From the sequence record NC_055708.1: a DNA stretch of 64,000 bases. The stretch is one strand, 5' to 3'. The stretch is from Enterobacteria phage ATK47. Positions 7,124 through 38,377 of the stretch are shown here, one piece after another. The stretch's first letter is position 1; every line of letters starts with the position of its first letter. The position numbers were made by a program, and so were the translations under genes. The notes beneath the pieces were generated by a model, which ran no database searches, was not told the origin of the DNA, and was given only the letters and a program-made list of their open reading frames with translations.

Positions 7124-9106
7124 TTAACCACCTACAGCACCAATCAGTTCGTCGAAATCGGCACCAGTTGCTGTTGCTACAAAGTTCAACGTAATATAAT
7201 TTATCGAGCGGGCAGGTTGTAAGTAGAAAGTAGCTACAAATTCATTACGGTCGATAACTGCTGGGGTGTTATTGGTAGTATCACAAACAACTTTAAAGTT
7301 ATATACACCACCGAGAGCTTTAATACCCTGTAGATATTGAGAAGTCTCTGTACGGAAAGAAGAACGGGTAAATGCGTTGTTCAATTCAAACAGGCGATAT
7401 TTAGATGCTGAACCAATGTTCGTTTTAACCATATTGAACAAACGACGAACGTTAATACGGTCAAATGGTGAAGGAACGGAAGTGGCAGTTTTATCACCAT
7501 ACAGAACATATCCGTCACCGCCGGTGCCAGTAACAGGGTTAATAGCTTCCTGATACAAACGATCACGTTGTGGTTGACGAGTTTCAATTGCAAGCTTAAT
7601 AACGTTAAGAATTTGTCCACGGTTATAACCGGCCGGAGACATCCAAGGTTGAGAAATATTGTCTGTGCGAGCACAAAGACCTGCAATATCAGCAGCTAAC
7701 GGAACCCAACGATTCACGTCATTATATTTGTCATATTGATATTTATAGTTACCGTCAATAGCAGCATAAGTAGAACTTACATTAAAGTTATTATCAGTGT
7801 AAGTTCCTGATGCAGTACGCCAATCAACCAGATTATCAACTGCACGATTAACAGGAATACCGACTATAGTTGAACGTGGTGGTGAGCAAAGAACCAAGCA
7901 ATCTTGGCGAGAATCACCAATTGCTACAACATGTTTCTGAACCGTGGAAGCAACTTCTAAAGATTCACCTGCACAAGAACCGGCAATAAACAACTGCGCA
8001 TTAACAGATTCGCGGTCAGCAAACAAATCCCAAGCTTCCATTAAATCACCAGCGTCAACCGTTTCATTAGATGATAAGCCACCACTCAGTTTGATTACGC
8101 CAGAGAAACCTTTTGGCCAACCTTGTGCAGTAGCGAAAATATAATTGCTTGCGCCTTTAGCAAAGAAATCATCAATAAAGATATTACTACCATAAATATC
8201 GCGTTCACCACGTTTAGTAGAAAGAACTACACTCTGGACTACAGCATCGTTACGACGAACGATAATTGCATATTGGTCATCTGTTTGTGGGCCATACCCA
8301 AAGATTGCTTTAGCCGTAGATGCACGAGTACCACCATCAGGATAAATTTTTAACTGGGCTGAAGCACCTTTGTCATAGTCTGCTTTAGATACGATTTCAA
8401 TTTCGAGCTGGTCCCCAAGTTCACCAGGATAAAGAGCAACTACGCCTGGGACACCATATTTTTTAATAGATTCTTGGAAAGTTACAGAAGTAATAGCTTC
8501 TTCAGAAGTTTCAACTTCAGTTAACAGAATACCAGAATCAGTTACGATAGAACCAATTGTAATAACGCCAGAGAGCCCAGAAGAAGAACTGGCTACTTCG
8601 GCGGTCCAGTTAGAACCCAATGCCGGATATTCATTAATTTCTTTTGCACGAGCAATAATTTTACCGGTTGGGATATAAATGTTAAGAATTTTACCATCGA
8701 CATCAACTGAAGTTACATAACCATCTGCTTCAACAGTTTCAGTCAAATACTTAACGATAATTTTATCACCAACCGCATAGTTACTACCAGCAGCAGAGAT
8801 TGTGAATTCAATATTGCCTGCTACAGGAGATGAGTTCTTAGCAGTATCACGATCAACTGCGCGTACAACACGAAGGTCATTACCATATTGAAGGAAGTTC
8901 ATAGCAGACATGAAATAATCTGCTGTATCTGTATTAGGAGTACCAAACATATCAACCAATGCAACTTCATCAGTGATTTGTTTAATCTGGAATGCAGGTC
9001 CCCATTGGAATTTTCCAGCCAGGGCAGCAGTACCAGTGGAGTTATTAACTACAGTACTCTGTACGGTAGTTTCTTTGAGCTCAACGCCCGGAGAGAGAAG
9101 TGCCAT
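7124..9106 (-). CDS. 18: contractile tail sheath protein gp18
   Basis: 660 aa; size and synteny as T4 gp18. Confidence 0.9.
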   Translation of the reverse strand: MALLSPGVELKETTVQSTVVNNSTGTAALAGKFQWGPAFQIKQITDEVALVDMFGTPNTDTADYFMSAMNFLQYGNDLRVVRAVDRDTAKNSSPVAGNIEFTISAAGSNYAVGDKIIVKYLTETVEADGYVTSVDVDGKILNIYIPTGKIIARAKEINEYPALGSNWTAEVASSSSGLSGVITIGSIVTDSGILLTEVETSEEAITSVTFQESIKKYGVPGVVALYPGELGDQLEIEIVSKADYDKGASAQLKIYPDGGTRASTAKAIFGYGPQTDDQYAIIVRRNDAVVQSVVLSTKRGERDIYGSNIFIDDFFAKGASNYIFATAQGWPKGFSGVIKLSGGLSSNETVDAGDLMEAWDLFADRESVNAQLFIAGSCAGESLEVASTVQKHVVAIGDSRQDCLVLCSPPRSTIVGIPVNRAVDNLVDWRTASGTYTDNNFNVSSTYAAIDGNYKYQYDKYNDVNRWVPLAADIAGLCARTDNISQPWMSPAGYNRGQILNVIKLAIETRQPQRDRLYQEAINPVTGTGGDGYVLYGDKTATSVPSPFDRINVRRLFNMVKTNIGSASKYRLFELNNAFTRSSFRTETSQYLQGIKALGGVYNFKVVCDTTNNTPAVIDRNEFVATFYLQPARSINYITLNFVATATGADFDELIGAVGG

Positions 9107-33998: not shown

Positions 33999-34184
33999 AT
34001 GAAACGCGCTGAACTGATTCGTAATGTTGCTGTAGTAATTGCTTCAATGGCTTTTAGTTTTTCGATGTTTGTAGGATTCATTTGTGGACTACTGACAACA
34101 ACTGAAAATTCTATCTCATTGGTAGTAGCATTTCTAATCGGTTTAATCGCTATTGTTATGGATAAAATTGCAAAAGGTGAGTAA
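33999..34184 (+). CDS. small membrane protein (61 aa, two hydrophobic helices)
   Basis: SD GAGGAGA; hydrophobic segments VAVVIASMAFSFSMFVGFICGLL and LVVAFLIGLIAIV. Confidence 0.55.
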   Translation: MKRAELIRNVAVVIASMAFSFSMFVGFICGLLTTTENSISLVVAFLIGLIAIVMDKIAKGE

Positions 34185-34185
34185 A

Positions 34186-34548
34186 ATGAAATATCACGTA
34201 TATGCGGATTTTGAAGCAAATCCTTCTAAAGACCCGGATTGTCGTTTATTCCGTAATCCGTTTGATTCAGCAGCTCAAGCATGGGCCTGGATTAAAACTT
34301 GTACTCCTTCTTACACTTTCTTTGAAGTGGTAGATGATAATGGTGTTTTGCATCCAGAACCTACAGAAACTATTAATTTCCTTCTGTTTGCTGGTTATGA
34401 CTGTTATCCTCTTGGTGGTATTGACGACCTTGTTGCTACAGGAAAAACTGTTGAAGCTCTTCGCGAAATTTATAAAAACGCAGAAGAAAATTTTGACTGG
34501 TATCATATTGTTGATGCTCATACCTTTGAAGTGGTGGAACATTCATGA
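34186..34548 (+). CDS. hypothetical protein (120 aa)
   Basis: ATG 34186 with SD AGGTGAG; ORF in operon context. Confidence 0.55.
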   Translation: MKYHVYADFEANPSKDPDCRLFRNPFDSAAQAWAWIKTCTPSYTFFEVVDDNGVLHPEPTETINFLLFAGYDCYPLGGIDDLVATGKTVEALREIYKNAEENFDWYHIVDAHTFEVVEHS

Positions 34549-34835
34549 TTCTTTATGCTAAGGTAAAATCCGTTGAGAATGGATATGAAAGCGATCAACG
34601 TGCAGCTAAAGCACTAGTCGATTACTATGGTATTTTGACCCACTTTGAAGTTGAAAAGGTTTACGTCGACCGTTCATCTTCACAGGTTAAATTACTTTGG
34701 GAAGACCGCAAATTTAATAGTGTGAACTTTGATTTCTTTATTGAAACAGAAAAAGGTCCTCTTGAATATGATATTTTCAAGAATCCTTTAAATCTTGAAT
34801 GTATTGAGTATAATTACATTAATATGGTACGGTGA
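34545..34835 (+). CDS. hypothetical protein (96 aa)
   Basis: Overlapping ATGA junction with upstream gene. Confidence 0.55.
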   Translation: MILYAKVKSVENGYESDQRAAKALVDYYGILTHFEVEKVYVDRSSSQVKLLWEDRKFNSVNFDFFIETEKGPLEYDIFKNPLNLECIEYNYINMVR

Positions 34836-34839
34836 GTAA

Positions 34840-35355
34840 ATGAATATTTGTTTAGGCAGTACAATTCCTAAGGGTTATGTAATTGATGTCACTACCTATG
34901 AAAATGACGGGGACAACTATAAAACCAAAACATTGTTTGAAGTGGAAGAGCATGAGCTCCAACAGTTTAAATATCTCTTGAAGAAATTTAAGAGTCGTCA
35001 TTCCAGCACTAAAGCTGAACGTTACTGTGGTAATACACCATTCAGTGACTGCTCGCTTATTATCTACGAATATCTGGTTGAAGGGCTGTTCTCAGACCAA
35101 CTCCGACCAGAATTTATTAAAAAGGTCTTTGGCATCGAAGTAGACCTTGGTGATAAATCTGAAGAAGACGAAGCCCGCGTATTCGACCTGTTCTTTGTGA
35201 AAGGCGATGAGATATCTCAAGGACTTATTGATATTCTTGGCTATGCTTCTGAATACTATGATTACGATTTCTTGCGTGTAGTTGAACGTGTCGAATTTGC
35301 TTATATTGAAGAAGAAATTGTTTTGCCAACTGTTAAAATGATTGATTTGCTTTAA
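34840..35355 (+). CDS. hypothetical protein (171 aa)
   Basis: SD GGTGAG; acidic ORF. Confidence 0.55.
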   Translation: MNICLGSTIPKGYVIDVTTYENDGDNYKTKTLFEVEEHELQQFKYLLKKFKSRHSSTKAERYCGNTPFSDCSLIIYEYLVEGLFSDQLRPEFIKKVFGIEVDLGDKSEEDEARVFDLFFVKGDEISQGLIDILGYASEYYDYDFLRVVERVEFAYIEEEIVLPTVKMIDLL

Positions 35356-35434
35356 GAATTATGTGTTATTATTAATTCATACCCTCTATTACCAAAGGTG
35401 CTCTAAAGTGCCTTTCATAATAGAAAGTTATTAA

Positions 35435-35509
35435 GGCCCTGTAGCTCAATGGGAGAGCTGTCAGCTCATAACTGATAGGTAGCTGGATCGAAACCAGCCA
35501 GGGTCACCA
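35435..35509 (+). tRNA. tRNA, anticodon CAT (Met, or Ile2 if lysidine-modified as in T4 tRNA-Ile)
   Basis: Cloverleaf folded by hand: acceptor GGCCCTG/CAGGGTC, D-stem GCTC/GAGC, anticodon loop CTCATAA, T-stem GCTGG/CCAGC, encoded CCA. Confidence 0.8.
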
Positions 35510-35512
35510 ATT

Positions 35513-35589
<77 letters not shown>

Positions 35590-35607
35590 ACTTCAAGTGA
35601 GGAAAAT

Positions 35608-35952
35608 ATGAAAGGTAATATTTATCTGGTAGTTCATGATTTAACGTTTTATTTTAACGAACAGGATACAGTTATTTCCGACCGGTTGATTAATTCATTA
35701 TATCAACACGCTGATTACGTTTATTTCCAAAATGAATTTGGCCATTGGAAGTTTCTTAAAAACCGTTCCGGGTTAACTAGTTTTGAATACTTTGACCGTA
35801 AAGACCTTTTAAACGAAATCCCATTGCAACATCGGTTCCAGAAACGCGAATCACTATACTATTGTCGCCATATACCAAATGCTGAATGTGTTTATGAAGC
35901 GATTAATCTATGGCGTCGGCGTCGAGAGCAAATTGATGATATGCCAAAATAA
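35608..35952 (+). CDS. hypothetical protein (114 aa) downstream of tRNAs
   Basis: SD GAGGAAA 4 nt from tRNA end, ATG 35608; could alternatively be non-coding. Confidence 0.45.
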   Translation: MKGNIYLVVHDLTFYFNEQDTVISDRLINSLYQHADYVYFQNEFGHWKFLKNRSGLTSFEYFDRKDLLNEIPLQHRFQKRESLYYCRHIPNAECVYEAINLWRRRREQIDDMPK

Positions 35953-36264
35953 GAAGCCGGGTCGCTACCGGCAAGTCGTCGGACTGATGTTCCCTGAGTA
36001 AGGACTGGTCTTAATAAATCTTTATGATTTGTTAATATCCCCTTACATCACAGCAGAAACGGCGCACAAAATTATCGATTCGAGGAAATATCTTTGCCGT
36101 AATCCGAGTAGCGTTTTTGACGGAACGTTCGGATATGGTCGAGATATGGCCTTTTAAAAATATTGAGTAGCGTCAACTGCTTAATAACCAGGTTCAAATC
36201 CCGGCGTTTCGTACAAACACTTGCCTTAGCAGGTGGAACCCCGACAAGGTTGCCGCAAGGCTTA
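35953..36264 (+). ncRNA. candidate stable structured RNA (position analogous to T4 species 1/2 RNAs)
   Basis: About 310 nt without ORF, GC-balanced with several local inverted repeats and a T-loop-like GGTTCAAATCC, ending at a terminator. Confidence 0.3.
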
Positions 36265-36290
36265 GCCCCTTCCGAAAGGTTGGGGCTTTT
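36265..36290 (+). terminator. rho-independent terminator
   Basis: GCCCC...GGGGC stem with GAAA loop followed by TTTT. Confidence 0.65.
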
Positions 36291-36335
36291 GGCATAATAA
36301 TAAATAGATAAGTTAATTAACTTAGGAAAAGCAAC

Positions 36336-36800
36336 ATGAAATCATACGCTGAATTTTTGACTGAACAATCTAGTTCAGATGTAAAAGCCGCTGCGATTGC
36401 AGCAATTCAAGCAGGTAAATATTCTTACAAAGACGCCTCTGATGAAGAACGTTTCCGTTTTATTAGAGATTTTAAAGCCGAAGGTTTTACTAATGCTAAT
36501 ACTGTTAGCCGAGTTTTTAAAAGCCTAGCTGCATCAGGTGAATTGTTCCAGAAAGCTACAGGTAAAGCACCTGCGCCAAAAACAGACCCTAAAGCAGCTC
36601 AAGAAAAAAATATCGCCAAAGGAATTATTTCTAAGTATGAAGCAATTCTTAAAGAGCTTTTAGTAATCAAAACAGAAGGCCAGAAACTGGCACGAGCACA
36701 TAGCTTCAAAGATAATCCTCACGCTCATAGCCTTGAGTATGTTGAAGATATCCAAAAACTTATTAAAGACCGTATCTGGTCTGCTAAACAAATTAAATAA
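36336..36800 (+). CDS. internal protein-like (CTS leader)
   Basis: 154 aa; N-terminus MKSYAEFLTE matches CTS pattern. Confidence 0.7.
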   Translation: MKSYAEFLTEQSSSDVKAAAIAAIQAGKYSYKDASDEERFRFIRDFKAEGFTNANTVSRVFKSLAASGELFQKATGKAPAPKTDPKAAQEKNIAKGIISKYEAILKELLVIKTEGQKLARAHSFKDNPHAHSLEYVEDIQKLIKDRIWSAKQIK

Positions 36801-36806
36801 TAGAAT

Positions 36807-36835
36807 GCCCCTTCCTTATGGTTGGGGCCTTTTGG
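36807..36835 (+). terminator. rho-independent terminator (repeat copy 2)
   Basis: GCCCCTTCCTTATGGTTGGGGC followed by CTTTTGG. Confidence 0.65.
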
Positions 36836-36866
36836 TATCTAGGGCATAAAAATATTTCATAAAGAT

Positions 36867-36895
36867 GTTTACTTCTTCCCTAGATGTGTTACTAT
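36867..36895 (+). promoter_or_regulatory. T4-type early promoter
   Basis: GTTTAC, 17 nt, TG-t-TACTAT. Confidence 0.6.
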
Positions 36896-36923
36896 AGATT
36901 TATCAACCACAGAGGAAAATATT

Positions 36924-37427
36924 ATGAGTCTTTACACTGAACTGAATAAAAAATCTGAAGAATCTGCTGAAACTATTTTTAAAAACGTGCAAAAGCGTAT
37001 TTTGGAAAAGATGTACGATGCAGCATCTAAAGGTGAAAAATCTTGCCGGTTTCCGATGAGGTGTTCTTCTGATTTATGCGCAAATACTATTGAATGGCTG
37101 GAAAGTGAAGGTCTTACGGTAGAGAAAAACCCGGCGACTTCTATTGACAGTGAATCATATATTAGTATTTCTTGGGATAAATCAAGGGTAGAAGAGAAAG
37201 ATGGTGATTGGGTTGTAGATGTTAAAACTTCTGATGGTGGACGTTCTGTTGAAGTTTCAGCTGTAGTTAAAGGTACCCACGGACAAAGGACTTGGGGTTG
37301 GGGTGGTGAAGAAAAAGAAATTGTTCTTAGTGTGATTGCAAGGTCTACTAGCAATAAAATTGCCCAGAGCATCATCTATGCTGCATGTATCGAAGCTGGA
37401 AAAATTTGCAAAATTAAAAATAAATGA
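36924..37427 (+). CDS. hypothetical protein (167 aa)
   Basis: SD GAGGAAA; ORF. Confidence 0.6.
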   Translation: MSLYTELNKKSEESAETIFKNVQKRILEKMYDAASKGEKSCRFPMRCSSDLCANTIEWLESEGLTVEKNPATSIDSESYISISWDKSRVEEKDGDWVVDVKTSDGGRSVEVSAVVKGTHGQRTWGWGGEEKEIVLSVIARSTSNKIAQSIIYAACIEAGKICKIKNK

Positions 37428-37456
37428 TGTACAAACACCATGGACGGTGTTACTAT
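37427..37456 (+). promoter_or_regulatory. T4-type early promoter (variant -35 ATGTAC)
   Basis: ATGTAC, 18 nt, TG-t-TACTAT; overlaps stop of upstream gene. Confidence 0.5.
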
Positions 37457-37485
37457 AGACCTATCAAATCAAGAGGAGAAACAAA

Positions 37486-37713
37486 ATGGCTAAAGTTAGT
37501 ATTGATGTCGTTGATTATGAATACACAGAAGAAGTTATTCGCAACCGTCACCCTGAAGTTCGTATCGATTCAGTACAAGATTCCAAGTTCTGGACAACTG
37601 AGCTTAATCTGAGTGGTCCTTATGAAGCTGTTAAGAAGTTCATGGTTGAAGAATACTGCGAAGGAATGCACCCGGAAGACGCCAAGTTTTATGTCAATTT
37701 GATTAAAAAATAA
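37486..37713 (+). CDS. hypothetical protein (75 aa)
   Basis: SD GAGGAGA. Confidence 0.6.
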   Translation: MAKVSIDVVDYEYTEEVIRNRHPEVRIDSVQDSKFWTTELNLSGPYEAVKKFMVEEYCEGMHPEDAKFYVNLIKK

Positions 37714-37742
37714 TTTACAAACTCTTGAGAGCAGAGTATAAT
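37713..37742 (+). promoter_or_regulatory. early promoter within palindrome
   Basis: ATTTAC, 18 nt, TATAAT; GAGAGC...GCTCTC inverted repeat flanks the -10. Confidence 0.55.
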
Positions 37743-37783
37743 GCTCTCATTGGATAATAAACCACCAATTGAAAGGTAATAAT

Positions 37784-38377
37784 ATGAACACACTGAAGAA
37801 ACTTGTTGAATTCATCCGCACTAAACTGGGTACTGCTATGGCTAAAAATCTGACTGTCGAAGAACAGTATAACGCAGCTGCAGATAAGTTGATTACCCAA
37901 ATCAAAGAACTAAAAACGGCTTCTGTTAAATCTATTAATGAAGAAAAACGTATTCGCGAACTTGTTAATGAAAAGAACAAGCAAGCCGCTTCTAAGGAAC
38001 GTGAAATTCGTAAGCTCCTGGCTGAAGGACAAGATGTTACCATGCATGCTAAGCTTGGTCTTCTGTATCGTCGAACTGCCGAACAACTTAATACAAAAGC
38101 TGACGGGTATGCCGCTATGCGAATTGAAATTGCTCGTAAGGTGGTTGAACTTGATGATGCTCGTCAGAACCTGGCAATCAAACTCGAATACATTCGTGAA
38201 ACTCGAGCAGCCAATGCCCTTGGTATCTCTACGGCTGATGATGTAATTGAAATCGCTGCACTGACTAAGGTTGATATCGAAGACACTCTGACTCGTGTTG
38301 AAACGTTCAATGGCACTCCAGCTGGTGTCGAAACCACTTCTGCTGATGTACAAGAATATATTAACTCTTTGAAATAA
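37784..38377 (+). CDS. coiled-coil protein (197 aa)
   Basis: ATG 37784 with SD; heptad-rich helical sequence. Confidence 0.6.

Follow-up and report, generated by a model that had tools for sequence, protein, structure and literature searches.

Probable orthologues of the T4 stable RNAs rnaD and rnaC downstream of the tRNA genes of a T4-like phage

Identification of the stable RNA locus

Our analysis indicated that positions 35953-36290 of the window (the whole 64,000-nt stretch of DNA analysed here) correspond to orthologues of T4 rnaD (about 35949-36068) and rnaC (36075-36213), with a trailer and the tRNA-operon terminator behind them; we assign this reading a probability of about 0.85. The stretch could be aligned end to end with T4 rnaD plus rnaC. 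It also shares their strand and their place between tRNA-Arg and the operon terminator, and GenBank records carry the labels rnaC in ATK48 and rnaC and/or rnaD in RB7 and T4 at the equivalent places. The preliminary description had proposed a single stable RNA, perhaps an analogue of the two stable RNAs of T4. A structured stable-RNA locus was indeed present; the count was revised to two RNA genes plus a trailer, and the comparison with T4 proved understated, as alignment, position and annotation make these RNAs orthologues of both. The ends of rnaD and rnaC in this phage were carried over from the T4 annotation.

In sequence searches the region 35953-36290 matched the Mosigvirus phages Shf125875, SHSML-52-1 and ATK48 at 100%, and the source of the window is, judging by its sequence, a T4-like phage (Mosigvirus). 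T4 species 1 RNA (rnaC) and species 2 RNA (rnaD) have been known as small stable RNAs since the 1970s. The find is therefore an ordinary one and of little weight as a discovery, because both genes are already known in T4 and annotated in related genomes.

The region 35940-36300 gave an MFE z-score of -7.3 against dinucleotide shuffles. Its GC content, earlier described as normal, was high: 46.4% versus a window mean of 38.1% (sd 3.0), at the 99th percentile of 338-nt windows. Structured-RNA genes of AT-rich phages typically show such an excess. Rfam searches returned only the two tRNAs and chance matches (34000-38000, and 35940-36300 at E up to 10), and neither rnaC nor rnaD matched any Rfam 15 model. 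Covariation with related phages, which had been suggested as a check, was strong in both RNAs across many genera.

Structure and covariation of rnaC

The rnaC orthologue folds as a tRNA-shaped cloverleaf with the following parts:

36075-36213, + strand: rnaC orthologue, tRNA-shaped cloverleaf; 134 of 139 positions identical to T4 rnaC, without gaps; labelled rnaC in the ATK48 record
36076-36082, + strand: 5' strand of the acceptor stem (7 bp), pairing with 36205-36211; covariation
36083-36152, + strand: arm 1, a 70-nt irregular hairpin at the D-arm position, with five helices
36153-36160, + strand: single-stranded linker UUAAAAAU; AAAAU invariant in 23 sequences
36161-36186, + strand: arm 2, a 10-bp stem with the 6-nt loop CGUCAA (36171-36176); compensatory changes in 7 of the 10 stem pairs
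36188-36204, + strand: T arm, a 5-bp stem with the 7-nt loop UUCAAAU; two covarying pairs
36205-36217, + strand: 3' strand of the acceptor stem (36205-36211) and tail U-A-CAAA; no encoded CCA

The rnaC part had an MFE z-score of -4.2 (dinucleotide shuffles), and a covariance model from 23 homologues matched 36075-36217 with 162 bits (E about 1e-36). Pattern scans of IMG/VR were used to find rnaC copies. Across the 41 pairs of rnaC, 94.1% of cells were paired, compared with 40-50% in slid controls, and 22 pairs showed compensatory change, compared with 3-7 in the controls; none of 500 shuffles reached the observed pairing or compensation values. The third pair of the acceptor stem switches between A-U and G-C (11 and 12 sequences, respectively), and two positions that are U.U in most lineages are U-A and C-G in Tegunavirus. 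Arm 1 contains 12 compensatory pairs distributed over four helices, whilst its basal 3-bp helix is invariant. The T arm stacks directly on the acceptor 3' strand, and the T-loop-like sequence already noticed in the preliminary description, GGTTCAAATCC, lies in it at 36191-36201. In the tail, G, U, C, A and A are invariant in the 23 sequences. The copy in the window forms all pairs of the model except the third pair of the T stem (an A.C mismatch, 36190/36202) and the two U.U positions of the acceptor stem. The T-loop consensus has been lost in the Winklervirus clade and the L009 clade (UGCAUUC and UGCAUGC), so a canonical T loop is not universally required. An alternative acceptor, in which CGGAACG of arm 1 pairs with the 3' strand, is broken in Tegunavirus and Marfavirus and was judged incidental; in one IMG/VR copy this pairing leads ARAGORN to report a 95-nt 'tRNA-Met'.

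The apical loop of arm 1 (UUGACG, 36117-36122) is complementary to the loop of arm 2 (CGUCAA), and no other complementary 6-mer occurs in the unpaired segments of rnaC. The pairing was retained in 138 of 138 cells, with two independent double changes, UUGAUG/CAUCAA in the Tegunavirus lineage and UUGGCG/CGCCAA in a Marfavirus-like lineage. This pattern predicts a kissing contact between the apical loops, based on only two independent compensatory events, and the contact could be intermolecular instead of intramolecular. Kissing complexes of two hairpin loops are familiar from TAR-TAR* and from ColE1 RNA I/RNA II. As in those complexes, Watson-Crick complementarity extends over the whole of two 6-nt loops, and it is maintained by compensatory changes. 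However, both loops of rnaC lie in one molecule, on two arms of one junction, and their geometry is a predicted one.

Structure of rnaD

The features of the rnaD orthologue are as follows:

35949-36068, + strand: rnaD orthologue; 85.8% identity to T4 rnaD; MFE z-score -3.9 (dinucleotide shuffles)
35956-35972, + strand: 5' hairpin, 5 bp with the 7-nt loop GUCGCUA; closing pair varies among homologues
35975-35996, + strand: invariant 5' shell (17 close homologues)
35975-35981, 35988-35990 and 35991-35996, + strand: P1 5' strand, P2 5' strand and UCCCUG motif, respectively
35997-36046, + strand: variable apical hairpin; three unrelated versions, each folding as a hairpin
36047-36067, + strand: invariant 3' shell with AUCACAGC; homologue conservation and covariation
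36053-36055 and 36060-36067, + strand: P2 3' strand and P1 3' strand, respectively

The 5' hairpin contains the inverted repeat pointed out earlier, which was located at 35957-35971 as CCGG-GTCGCTA-CCGG; its closing pair is AU in 12 homologues, GC in 4 and GU in 1. The shell in this phage is identical to that of T4, and the apical hairpin occurs in a T4/Mosigvirus type, a Dhaka/Gapriver type and a T2 type. Overall, 91.9% of cells were paired compared with 25-55% in slid controls. P1 was 100% paired and showed a switch between G-C and C-G; P2 covaried as well, with GU/GC replaced by AA/UU. The P2 register with covariation pairs GU of GUUCCCUG with GC of CACAGC, and the MFE register CUG/CAG was unsupported in divergent homologues. 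A pairing of GAAACG at the 3' end of rnaD with CGUUUC at the 3' end of rnaC, found in the MFE fold of the whole precursor, was by eye not kept in Moon or F48 and was rejected. The rnaD core was recovered in six further lineages, including Moonvirus, Kanagawavirus, Marfavirus and metagenomic phages, and rnaD is more widely distributed than BLAST reveals, with rnaD-like RNAs well beyond Tequatrovirus and Mosigvirus.

The T4 counterpart (species II RNA, T4s002), for which alone a discrete RNA of about 120 nt has been reported (PMC9697503, PMC3014915), has the same invariant 5' hairpin and basal shell. It differs in several substitutions and indels of the apical hairpin and in its 3' end, which is CACC(A) in T4 and CACA in this phage. 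The spacer between rnaD and rnaC is 6 nt, as in T4. In T4 and RB7, rnaD follows directly on the CCA of tRNA-Arg (in T4 it starts 1 nt after the tRNA), whereas in this phage a 345-nt ORF of 114 aa lies between them. Because T2, SG1 and IME340 also carry the intervening ORF, adjacency to tRNA-Arg is a trait of T4 and RB7 and not of the family.

Distribution, gain and loss

In other genera rnaC is found within tRNA arrays, 5-6 nt after the preceding CCA and 1-5 nt before the next tRNA, and at most of these loci no rnaD-like core was seen in the flanking sequence examined. In the Dhakavirus AnYang, rnaC has been cleanly deleted. The two RNAs are therefore separable and non-essential. BLAST against 5,426 complete E. 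coli genomes gave no match to rnaC or rnaD, and a pattern scan of bacterial genomes gave 7 loci, none of them rnaC, with a top model score of 14.5 bits (E 0.11).

The clean deletion in AnYang might suggest that the locus is debris, that is, degenerated tRNA genes and processing spacers which are transcribed and trimmed and have no function of their own. It would also fit this idea that the tRNA/stable-RNA region is dispensable in T4 in laboratory hosts (PMC2330249), that rnaC retains only the top half of a tRNA and is called neither by the Rfam tRNA model nor by ARAGORN, and that one T-stem pair is mismatched in the window copy. However, the 22 compensatory pairs of rnaC and the covarying P1 and P2 of rnaD point to purifying selection on structure, which for the two RNAs spans more than 10 genera. 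Loops and linkers outside the helices are invariant, and the apical loops of rnaC covary with each other. Furthermore, one shared rnaD SNP arose in three independent lines while a T4-like phage was being adapted to a semi-permissive host (PMC12685909). We therefore consider debris improbable, although it is the best of the rivals to two selected stable RNAs.

The operon around the RNAs

The RNAs lie in a putative operon with the following elements:

35346-35372, + strand: putative MotA-type middle promoter (TTTGCTTTA, 12 nt, TATTAT); motif and flanks near base-for-base as upstream of T4 tRNA-Gln
35435-35589, + strand: tRNA-Met(CAU) and tRNA-Arg(UCU), upstream in the same transcription unit; ARAGORN; Rfam tRNA 59.4 and 71.1 bits
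35608-35952, + strand: 114-aa ORF (345 nt) between tRNA-Arg and rnaD; phrog_3355, E 1.9e-50
36214-36264, + strand: 3' trailer (about 50 nt) with a 7-bp hairpin at 36218-36235; kept in T4 and AnYang
36265-36290, + strand: predicted intrinsic terminator of the operon; homologous to the hairpin and U-tract after T4 rnaC

The T4-type middle-promoter motif sits 5' of tRNA-Met and probably drives the tRNA/stable-RNA operon in this phage. In T4, a middle promoter immediately 5' of the tRNA cluster drives its transcription, and a primary transcript of about 1.75 kb, ending after species I, is the precursor of eight tRNAs and the species I and II RNAs (PMC2330249).

The stop codon of the 114-aa ORF (TAA, 35950-35952) falls inside the T4-equivalent 5' end of rnaD, and the same ORF occupies the same place in T2, SG1 and IME340. 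The ORF had no Pfam match. It appears to be the 'trna.2 ORF' of T2L, because the probe primer published for the latter resembles positions 35610-35638 of the window (PMC2330249).

The trailer is kept in AnYang though rnaC is missing there, and in other genera a tRNA stands directly 3' of rnaC in its place. For the latter reason we do not regard the trailer as part of rnaC. The terminator had been described as strong. A GC-rich hairpin followed by TTTT was confirmed at 36265-36290, but its strength was not: the hairpin (36265-36286) is capped by a GAAA loop, its stem combines 7 Watson-Crick pairs with two U.U mismatches, and the hairpin, with only UUUU behind it, stayed uncalled in a consensus scan with a threshold of 5 U. 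The mismatched positions are G.U and A-U in T4, and the stem covaries in AnYang. It is apparently a weakened copy of the T4 terminator.

Structured 3' ends block exonucleases. In this phage the RNAs lie directly 3' of the ORF, whose stop overlaps the start of rnaD, so they might instead be cis-acting elements that protect or process the 3' end of the phrog_3355 message or insulate it from the downstream gene, and not free RNAs. This is very unlikely. No ORF precedes the RNAs in T4 and RB7, and in other genera tRNAs flank rnaC on both sides. T4 RNAC has been detected by Northern blot during infection (PMC9697503), and the T4 record annotates both rnaC and rnaD as small stable RNAs. Moreover, a simple protective hairpin would leave the sequence-invariant loops unexplained.

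Similarity to tRNA and other known RNAs

The closest relative, T4 rnaC (species I RNA, T4s001), likewise stands at the end of the tRNA operon, as the final gene ahead of the terminator, lies on the same strand and has the same predicted cloverleaf. Five substitutions separate the two; one of them creates the A.C mismatch in the T stem, and the T loop is UUCGAAU in T4 and UUCAAAU in this phage. With canonical tRNA (RF00005) rnaC shares a 7-bp acceptor stem that runs on into a 5-bp T stem, a 7-nt UUCRAAU loop, a four-way junction, and the setting in tRNA arrays with tRNA-like spacing. However, a 70-nt irregular arm replaces the D arm, an 8-nt linker is present, the 'anticodon' arm is a 10-bp stem with a 6-nt loop, and there is neither a variable region nor an encoded CCA. 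Consistent with this, the rnaC model matched genuine tRNAs only via the T arm and acceptor stem; RF00005 had no match in 35940-36300 at E up to 10, and ARAGORN called only the two upstream tRNAs. As in rnaC, the acceptor/T-arm half of a tRNA is reused in two other stable non-coding RNAs, namely in the tRNA-like domain of tmRNA and in the corresponding module of bacterial Y RNA (YrlA), and tRNA-processing enzymes therefore act on them. The tag ORF and pseudoknot ring of tmRNA are missing in rnaC, as is the Ro-binding stem that the two ends of YrlA form. Neither ARAGORN nor Rfam called a tmRNA in the region, and Rfam gave no YrlA match there.

RNase P and the CCA-adding enzyme recognise the acceptor-T minihelix. 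The presence of this element might suggest that rnaC is a tRNA-like adaptor, aminoacylated after CCA addition and entering the ribosome or another aminoacyl-transfer pathway like the tmRNA domain. In fact, the N-CAA of the rnaC tail occupies the place of N-CCA, and T4 tRNA-Pro and tRNA-Ser do not encode CCA either, which is supplied by the host (PMC11143913). Nevertheless, rnaC has no anticodon-type 7-nt loop, no tag reading frame, no ARAGORN tmRNA call and no identity pair of the G3.U70 type; the T4 annotation ends rnaC before any CCA, and in most lineages two positions of the acceptor stem are U.U mismatches. There is thus little chance that rnaC acts as an adaptor.

Possible processing and role

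In T4, the two stable RNAs share a primary transcript with the tRNAs and accumulate as discrete species (PMC2330249, PMC9697503). In this phage, a single transcript would run through tRNA-Met, tRNA-Arg, the ORF, rnaD and rnaC and would be cut up by the tRNA-maturation enzymes of the host. rnaC would offer RNase P a canonical 12-bp minihelix, with the acceptor stacked on the T stem, and exonucleases would trim the 3' ends to just past the closing stems, probably halting at C residues. Features counted against our preferred explanation were the ORF separating rnaD from tRNA-Arg, the A.C mismatch in the T stem of rnaC and the imperfect terminator.

The roles of RNAC and RNAD were stated as unknown (PMC3014915), and likewise in reviews and omics papers up to 2025. 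We suggest, with low confidence, that rnaC is a tRNA mimic and not a decoder, because it is without a 7-nt anticodon loop, a D arm and an encoded CCA. Within that low confidence, its most likely target would be a tRNA-binding factor of the host or the phage, for which it would serve as a stable ligand or decoy of tRNA shape, whilst rnaD is likely a hairpin RNA whose invariant base would be the functional or recognition part. Equally tentatively, the two may provide host-specific accessory functions. We make no claim for CsrA-type GGA motifs, for a decoy of an anticodon nuclease or for K-turn/loop-E motifs in the internal loops, because no conserved signature was found for any of them.

A more specific proposal, which is unlikely, is that intramolecular kissing between the two lower arms locks the fold of rnaC, and that this RNA either serves as decoy or inhibitor of a host tRNA-directed enzyme or of an anti-phage tRNA nuclease, or titrates RNase P or the CCA-adding enzyme; its partner would be rnaD, with the invariant base binding protein, and the two would jointly set host-specific virulence. 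If true, such a role would explain conservation throughout the Tevenvirinae despite dispensability in laboratory strains.

The covariation-backed cloverleaf of rnaC with its predicted loop-loop contact and the evidence for rnaD-like RNAs beyond Tequatrovirus and Mosigvirus are testable outcomes. The rnaC covariance model could seed family definitions and correct annotations, and the comparative results, together with the rnaD SNP reported in host adaptation, point to precise mutants worth making.

Coding potential

As had been stated in the preliminary description, no credible reading frame was present, here from the TAA at 35950-35952 to the next ATG at 36336. Stop-free stretches reached at most 76 codons on either strand and 58 on the + strand, and among close homologues 1-2-nt indels alter both the length and the frame of these stretches. 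Two TTG-initiated ORFs of 42 and 44 aa (36029-36157 and 36163-36297) and automatic CDS calls in several GenBank records ('hypothetical protein x2') are what speaks for one or two small proteins, a reading we rejected as highly improbable, because neither ORF is ATG-initiated, the stop-free layout is inconsistent across homologues, substitutions are pairwise compensatory in RNA helices without a third-codon-position bias, and the centre of rnaD is exchanged for unrelated sequence in three versions. In many phage records the region is wrongly labelled as hypothetical proteins.

Identity of the stretch

The ORF-free structured stretch at 35953-36290 (plus strand) aligned end to end with T4 rnaD (species 2 RNA), rnaC (species 1 RNA) and the sequence 3' of rnaC. 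The preliminary description had proposed a stable RNA, possibly an analogue of the T4 pair. The alignment and the record annotations identify orthologues of both rnaD and rnaC, and this interpretation was right and less specific than the evidence permits. Both RNAs are already known, and the observation was largely right. The remaining interest lies in the open question of their function and in the absence of a matching Rfam model: in a search of Rfam 15 with E up to 10, no family matched rnaC or rnaD. Complete E. coli genomes held no sequence related to either RNA.

Features of the locus
35346-35372, plus strand: putative middle promoter of the T4 MotA-dependent form (TTTGCTTTA, 12 nt, TATTAT)
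35435-35509, plus strand: tRNA-Met(CAU), by ARAGORN and Rfam
35513-35589, plus strand: tRNA-Arg(UCU), by ARAGORN and Rfam
35608-35952, plus strand: 114-aa ORF (phrog_3355, function unknown), between tRNA-Arg and rnaD
about 35949-36068, plus strand: rnaD orthologue, 85.8% identity to T4 rnaD
36075-36213, plus strand: rnaC orthologue, 134/139 identities to T4 rnaC, no gaps
36336-36800: 154-aa ORF (phrog_2280, function unknown), between two copies of the terminator hairpin

The 941 bases at 35400-36340 were 100% identical to Shigella phages Shf125875 and SHSML-52-1 and Enterobacteria phage ATK48 (Mosigvirus, Tevenvirinae), and about 780 T4-like phage records matched them at 80-100% identity. In the record of ATK48, whose sequence is identical, exactly 36075-36213 carries the annotation 'rnaC; small stable RNA; species 1 RNA', and the RB7 record places both rnaD and rnaC directly 3' of tRNA-Arg; several further records wrongly list hypothetical proteins here. 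The tRNA cluster (35435-35589) holds tRNA-Met(CAU) and tRNA-Arg(UCU) only, at a locus where T4 has eight tRNAs and RB7 ten. The 114-aa ORF, for which a Pfam search gave no match, occurs in T2, SG1 and IME340 and in neither T4 nor RB7. It is apparently the 'trna.2 ORF' that PMC2330249 describes in T2L, and its TAA (35950-35952) falls within the T4-equivalent 5' end of rnaD.

Structure of rnaC

Homologues of rnaC came from GenBank phages, IMG/VR and metagenomes, and covered Tequatrovirus, Mosigvirus, Gaprivervirus, Moonvirus, Karamvirus, Winklervirus, Tegunavirus, Gelderlandvirus, Kanagawavirus and Marfavirus as well as uncultured phages. From 23 distinct sequences, RNAalifold predicted a four-way junction. 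Its 41 pairs were formed in 94.1% of cells, compared with 40-50% once the pairing partners were slid, and 22 of them showed compensatory double changes, compared with 3-7 after sliding; none of 500 shuffles reached these values. As modelled, rnaC is a modified tRNA cloverleaf.

Elements of the predicted rnaC fold
36076-36082 with 36205-36211, plus strand: acceptor stem, 7 bp, continuous with the T stem
36188-36204, plus strand: T arm, 5-bp stem and 7-nt UUCRAAU loop
In place of the D arm, plus strand: arm 1, irregular, 70 nt
Between arms 1 and 2, plus strand: conserved single-stranded linker UUAAAAAU
In place of the anticodon arm, plus strand: arm 2, 10-bp hairpin with a 6-nt loop
36117-36122 and 36171-36176, plus strand: apical loops of arm 1 (UUGACG) and arm 2 (CGUCAA), exact complements

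The T-loop-like sequence already noticed, GGTTCAAATCC, was found at 36191-36201. In Tegunavirus, the two U.U positions of the acceptor stem are replaced by U-A and C-G, in support of this stem. A variable region and an encoded CCA are both lacking, and the tail, U-A-CAAA, is conserved. rnaC does carry an acceptor/T minihelix, the element recognised by RNase P and the CCA-adding enzyme, as a chargeable tmRNA-like adaptor would; however, all other features of such an adaptor are missing, and rnaC cannot be a decoding tRNA.

A covariance model of the 23-sequence alignment had a single hit in the window and a single hit in each of 49 of the 50 loci searched, and in 11 further loci genuine tRNAs matched it at 26-27 bits, solely via the T arm and acceptor stem. 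Inside the rnaC copy of one uncultured-virus locus (IMGVR_UViG_2700989062_000001, 8491-8585, minus strand), ARAGORN called a 95-nt 'tRNA-Met' because the 3' acceptor strand has a second possible partner in an internal CGGAACG; this alternative pairing is not kept in Tegunavirus or Marfavirus.

The apical loops are the sole complementary 6-mer among the unpaired segments of rnaC, and 138 of 138 cells were paired in the 23 sequences. The loops changed in two lineages only, with compensation in both (UUGAUG/CAUCAA in Tegunavirus, UUGGCG/CGCCAA in a Marfavirus-like clade). Since these are two independent events, the comparison is suggestive rather than conclusive of a kissing contact, whether intramolecular or intermolecular. 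The predicted kissing loop and the models backed by covariation make concrete experiments possible.

Structure and distribution of rnaD

Among 17 close homologues, an invariant shell surrounded an apical hairpin that occurred in three unrelated sequence versions.

Conserved parts of rnaD
Shell, 5' side, plus strand: CCGG-GUCGCUA-CCGG hairpin, then AAGUCGUCGGACUGAWGUUCCCUG (17 close homologues)
Shell, 3' side, plus strand: UCACAGCWGAAACGGCGCAC (17 close homologues)
Core, in order: AAGUCGUCN, NNUCCCUG, variable hairpin, CACANN, NGGCGCA

BLAST found rnaD in Tequatrovirus, Mosigvirus, Gaprivervirus and Dhakavirus only; profile and motif searches located its core also in Moonvirus, Kanagawavirus, Marfavirus and several uncultured phages, in these added lineages always 5' of rnaC and in the tRNA region. 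Across 11 diverse sequences, pairing in the closing helix P1 was 100%, including one switch from G-C to C-G, and the second helix changed from GU/GC to AA/UU in four. Overall, 91.9% of cells were paired versus 25-55% in slid controls, and the covariation score was 0.42 versus at most 0.14. The single-sequence MFE register of T4-type rnaD differed from the covarying register and was rejected. Structural covariation, which the preliminary description had proposed to look for, was thus strong in both rnaC and rnaD; together with the invariance of unpaired segments, it contradicts the view that the stretch is functionless tRNA-gene debris.

The two RNAs are separable. In Escherichia phage AnYang (Dhakavirus; 1201-1400 of its locus), rnaC was cleanly deleted at the junction of GCGCACCGAA and CACTTGCC, with rnaD, trailer and terminator kept, and no rnaD-like core was found in most rnaC-bearing loci of other genera within the flanks fetched. 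Further conserved ORF-free sequence was seen in tRNA regions of other genera, in the loci of Klebsiella phage F48 (L027, 1110-1356) and Citrobacter phage Moon (1267-1425), and similarly in comparison loci L008, L009, L019/L026, L022, L024, L028 and L045. Lying between the rnaD-like core and the tRNA preceding rnaC, it had no Rfam match, is missing from T4 and the window, and may represent a third stable RNA. In Moon (L004, KM236240), the GenBank tRNA strand is opposite to Rfam's, and an unannotated tRNA found by Rfam (L004:1039-1111) overlaps an annotated CDS just 5' of the rnaD-like core.

Processing and function

The rnaC and rnaD genes lie within the tRNA operon. In other genera rnaC is packed closely among tRNA genes, starting 5-6 nt past the CCA of the upstream tRNA and ending 1-5 nt short of the downstream one. 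Host RNase P, exonucleases and nucleotidyltransferase process the tRNA precursors of T4 (PMC11143913). RNase P would make the rnaC 5' end; 3' exonucleases would remove the AAAUUA spacer, so that the 3' terminus of rnaD lies at the base of P1, and the rnaC 3' end would be trimmed to 1-3 nt past the acceptor stem. The T4 annotation, which ends rnaD in ...CACC and rnaC in ...GUA (then C), would fit exonuclease stalling at C residues.

The function of both RNAs is unknown in the literature (PMC3014915, 2010; PMC9697503, 2022; PMC12685909, 2025). A role purely in cis, as a 3' element serving the upstream ORF, is contradicted by the lack of this ORF in T4 and RB7 and by Northern blots that show RNAC, accumulating late, in T4 (PMC9697503). 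During adaptation of a T4-like phage to a semi-permissive E. coli host, a single shared rnaD SNP arose in 3 of 3 lines (PMC12685909), which hints at a host-specific accessory role. At low confidence, our best guess is that rnaC acts as a stable mimic of tRNA and occupies a tRNA-binding factor, with the invariant basal part of rnaD as a recognition site.

Coding potential and composition

As had been described, no credible reading frame was found between the ORF stop at 35950-35952 and the next start codon at 36336; the sole ORFs between 35952 and 36336 were TTG-initiated and of 42-44 aa, and the pattern of stop-free stretches differed among close homologues of the rnaD/rnaC region. Such frame instability, together with RNA-type substitutions, excludes small proteins. 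The inverted repeat was confirmed at 35957-35971. The GC content had been taken as normal, but at 46.4% versus 38.1% for the genome it lies at the 99th percentile. Folding z-scores (-3.9, -4.2 and -7.3) were far better than those of shuffled sequence. A minus-strand terminator-like site called by the scan at 35956-35972 is the rnaD 5' hairpin read backwards, with the T-rich complement of AAAATAAGAA after it; no convergent minus-strand gene was seen among the ORFs listed for 34500-37500.

Transcription unit

In T4, transcription proceeds from a middle promoter just 5' of the tRNA cluster through the entire cluster (PMC2330249, citing Broida and Abelson) and ends 3' of the species I RNA gene, and the primary transcript of about 1.75 kb yields eight tRNAs and the species I and II RNAs (PMC2330249). 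The promoter motif at 35346-35372 matched the sequence upstream of T4 tRNA-Gln nearly base for base, though the first tRNA after it is tRNA-Met; it overlaps the stop codon of the ORF that precedes it. By homology, we infer a unit of about 0.9 kb comprising promoter, tRNA-Met, tRNA-Arg, ORF, rnaD, rnaC, trailer and terminator. The terminator at 36265-36290 had been called strong: the hairpin and TTTT are present, but it is an imperfect copy of that in T4, with two U.U mismatches and four U, and a consensus terminator scan made no call there. A second copy of the hairpin (36807-36832, 85% identity) lies on the other side of ORF 36336-36800, and the sequence after T4's single terminator (GGTATCTAAGCC) matches that after this second copy (GGTATCTAGGGC). 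ORF 36336-36800 thus has the look of a cassette whose insertion at the terminator duplicated the hairpin.
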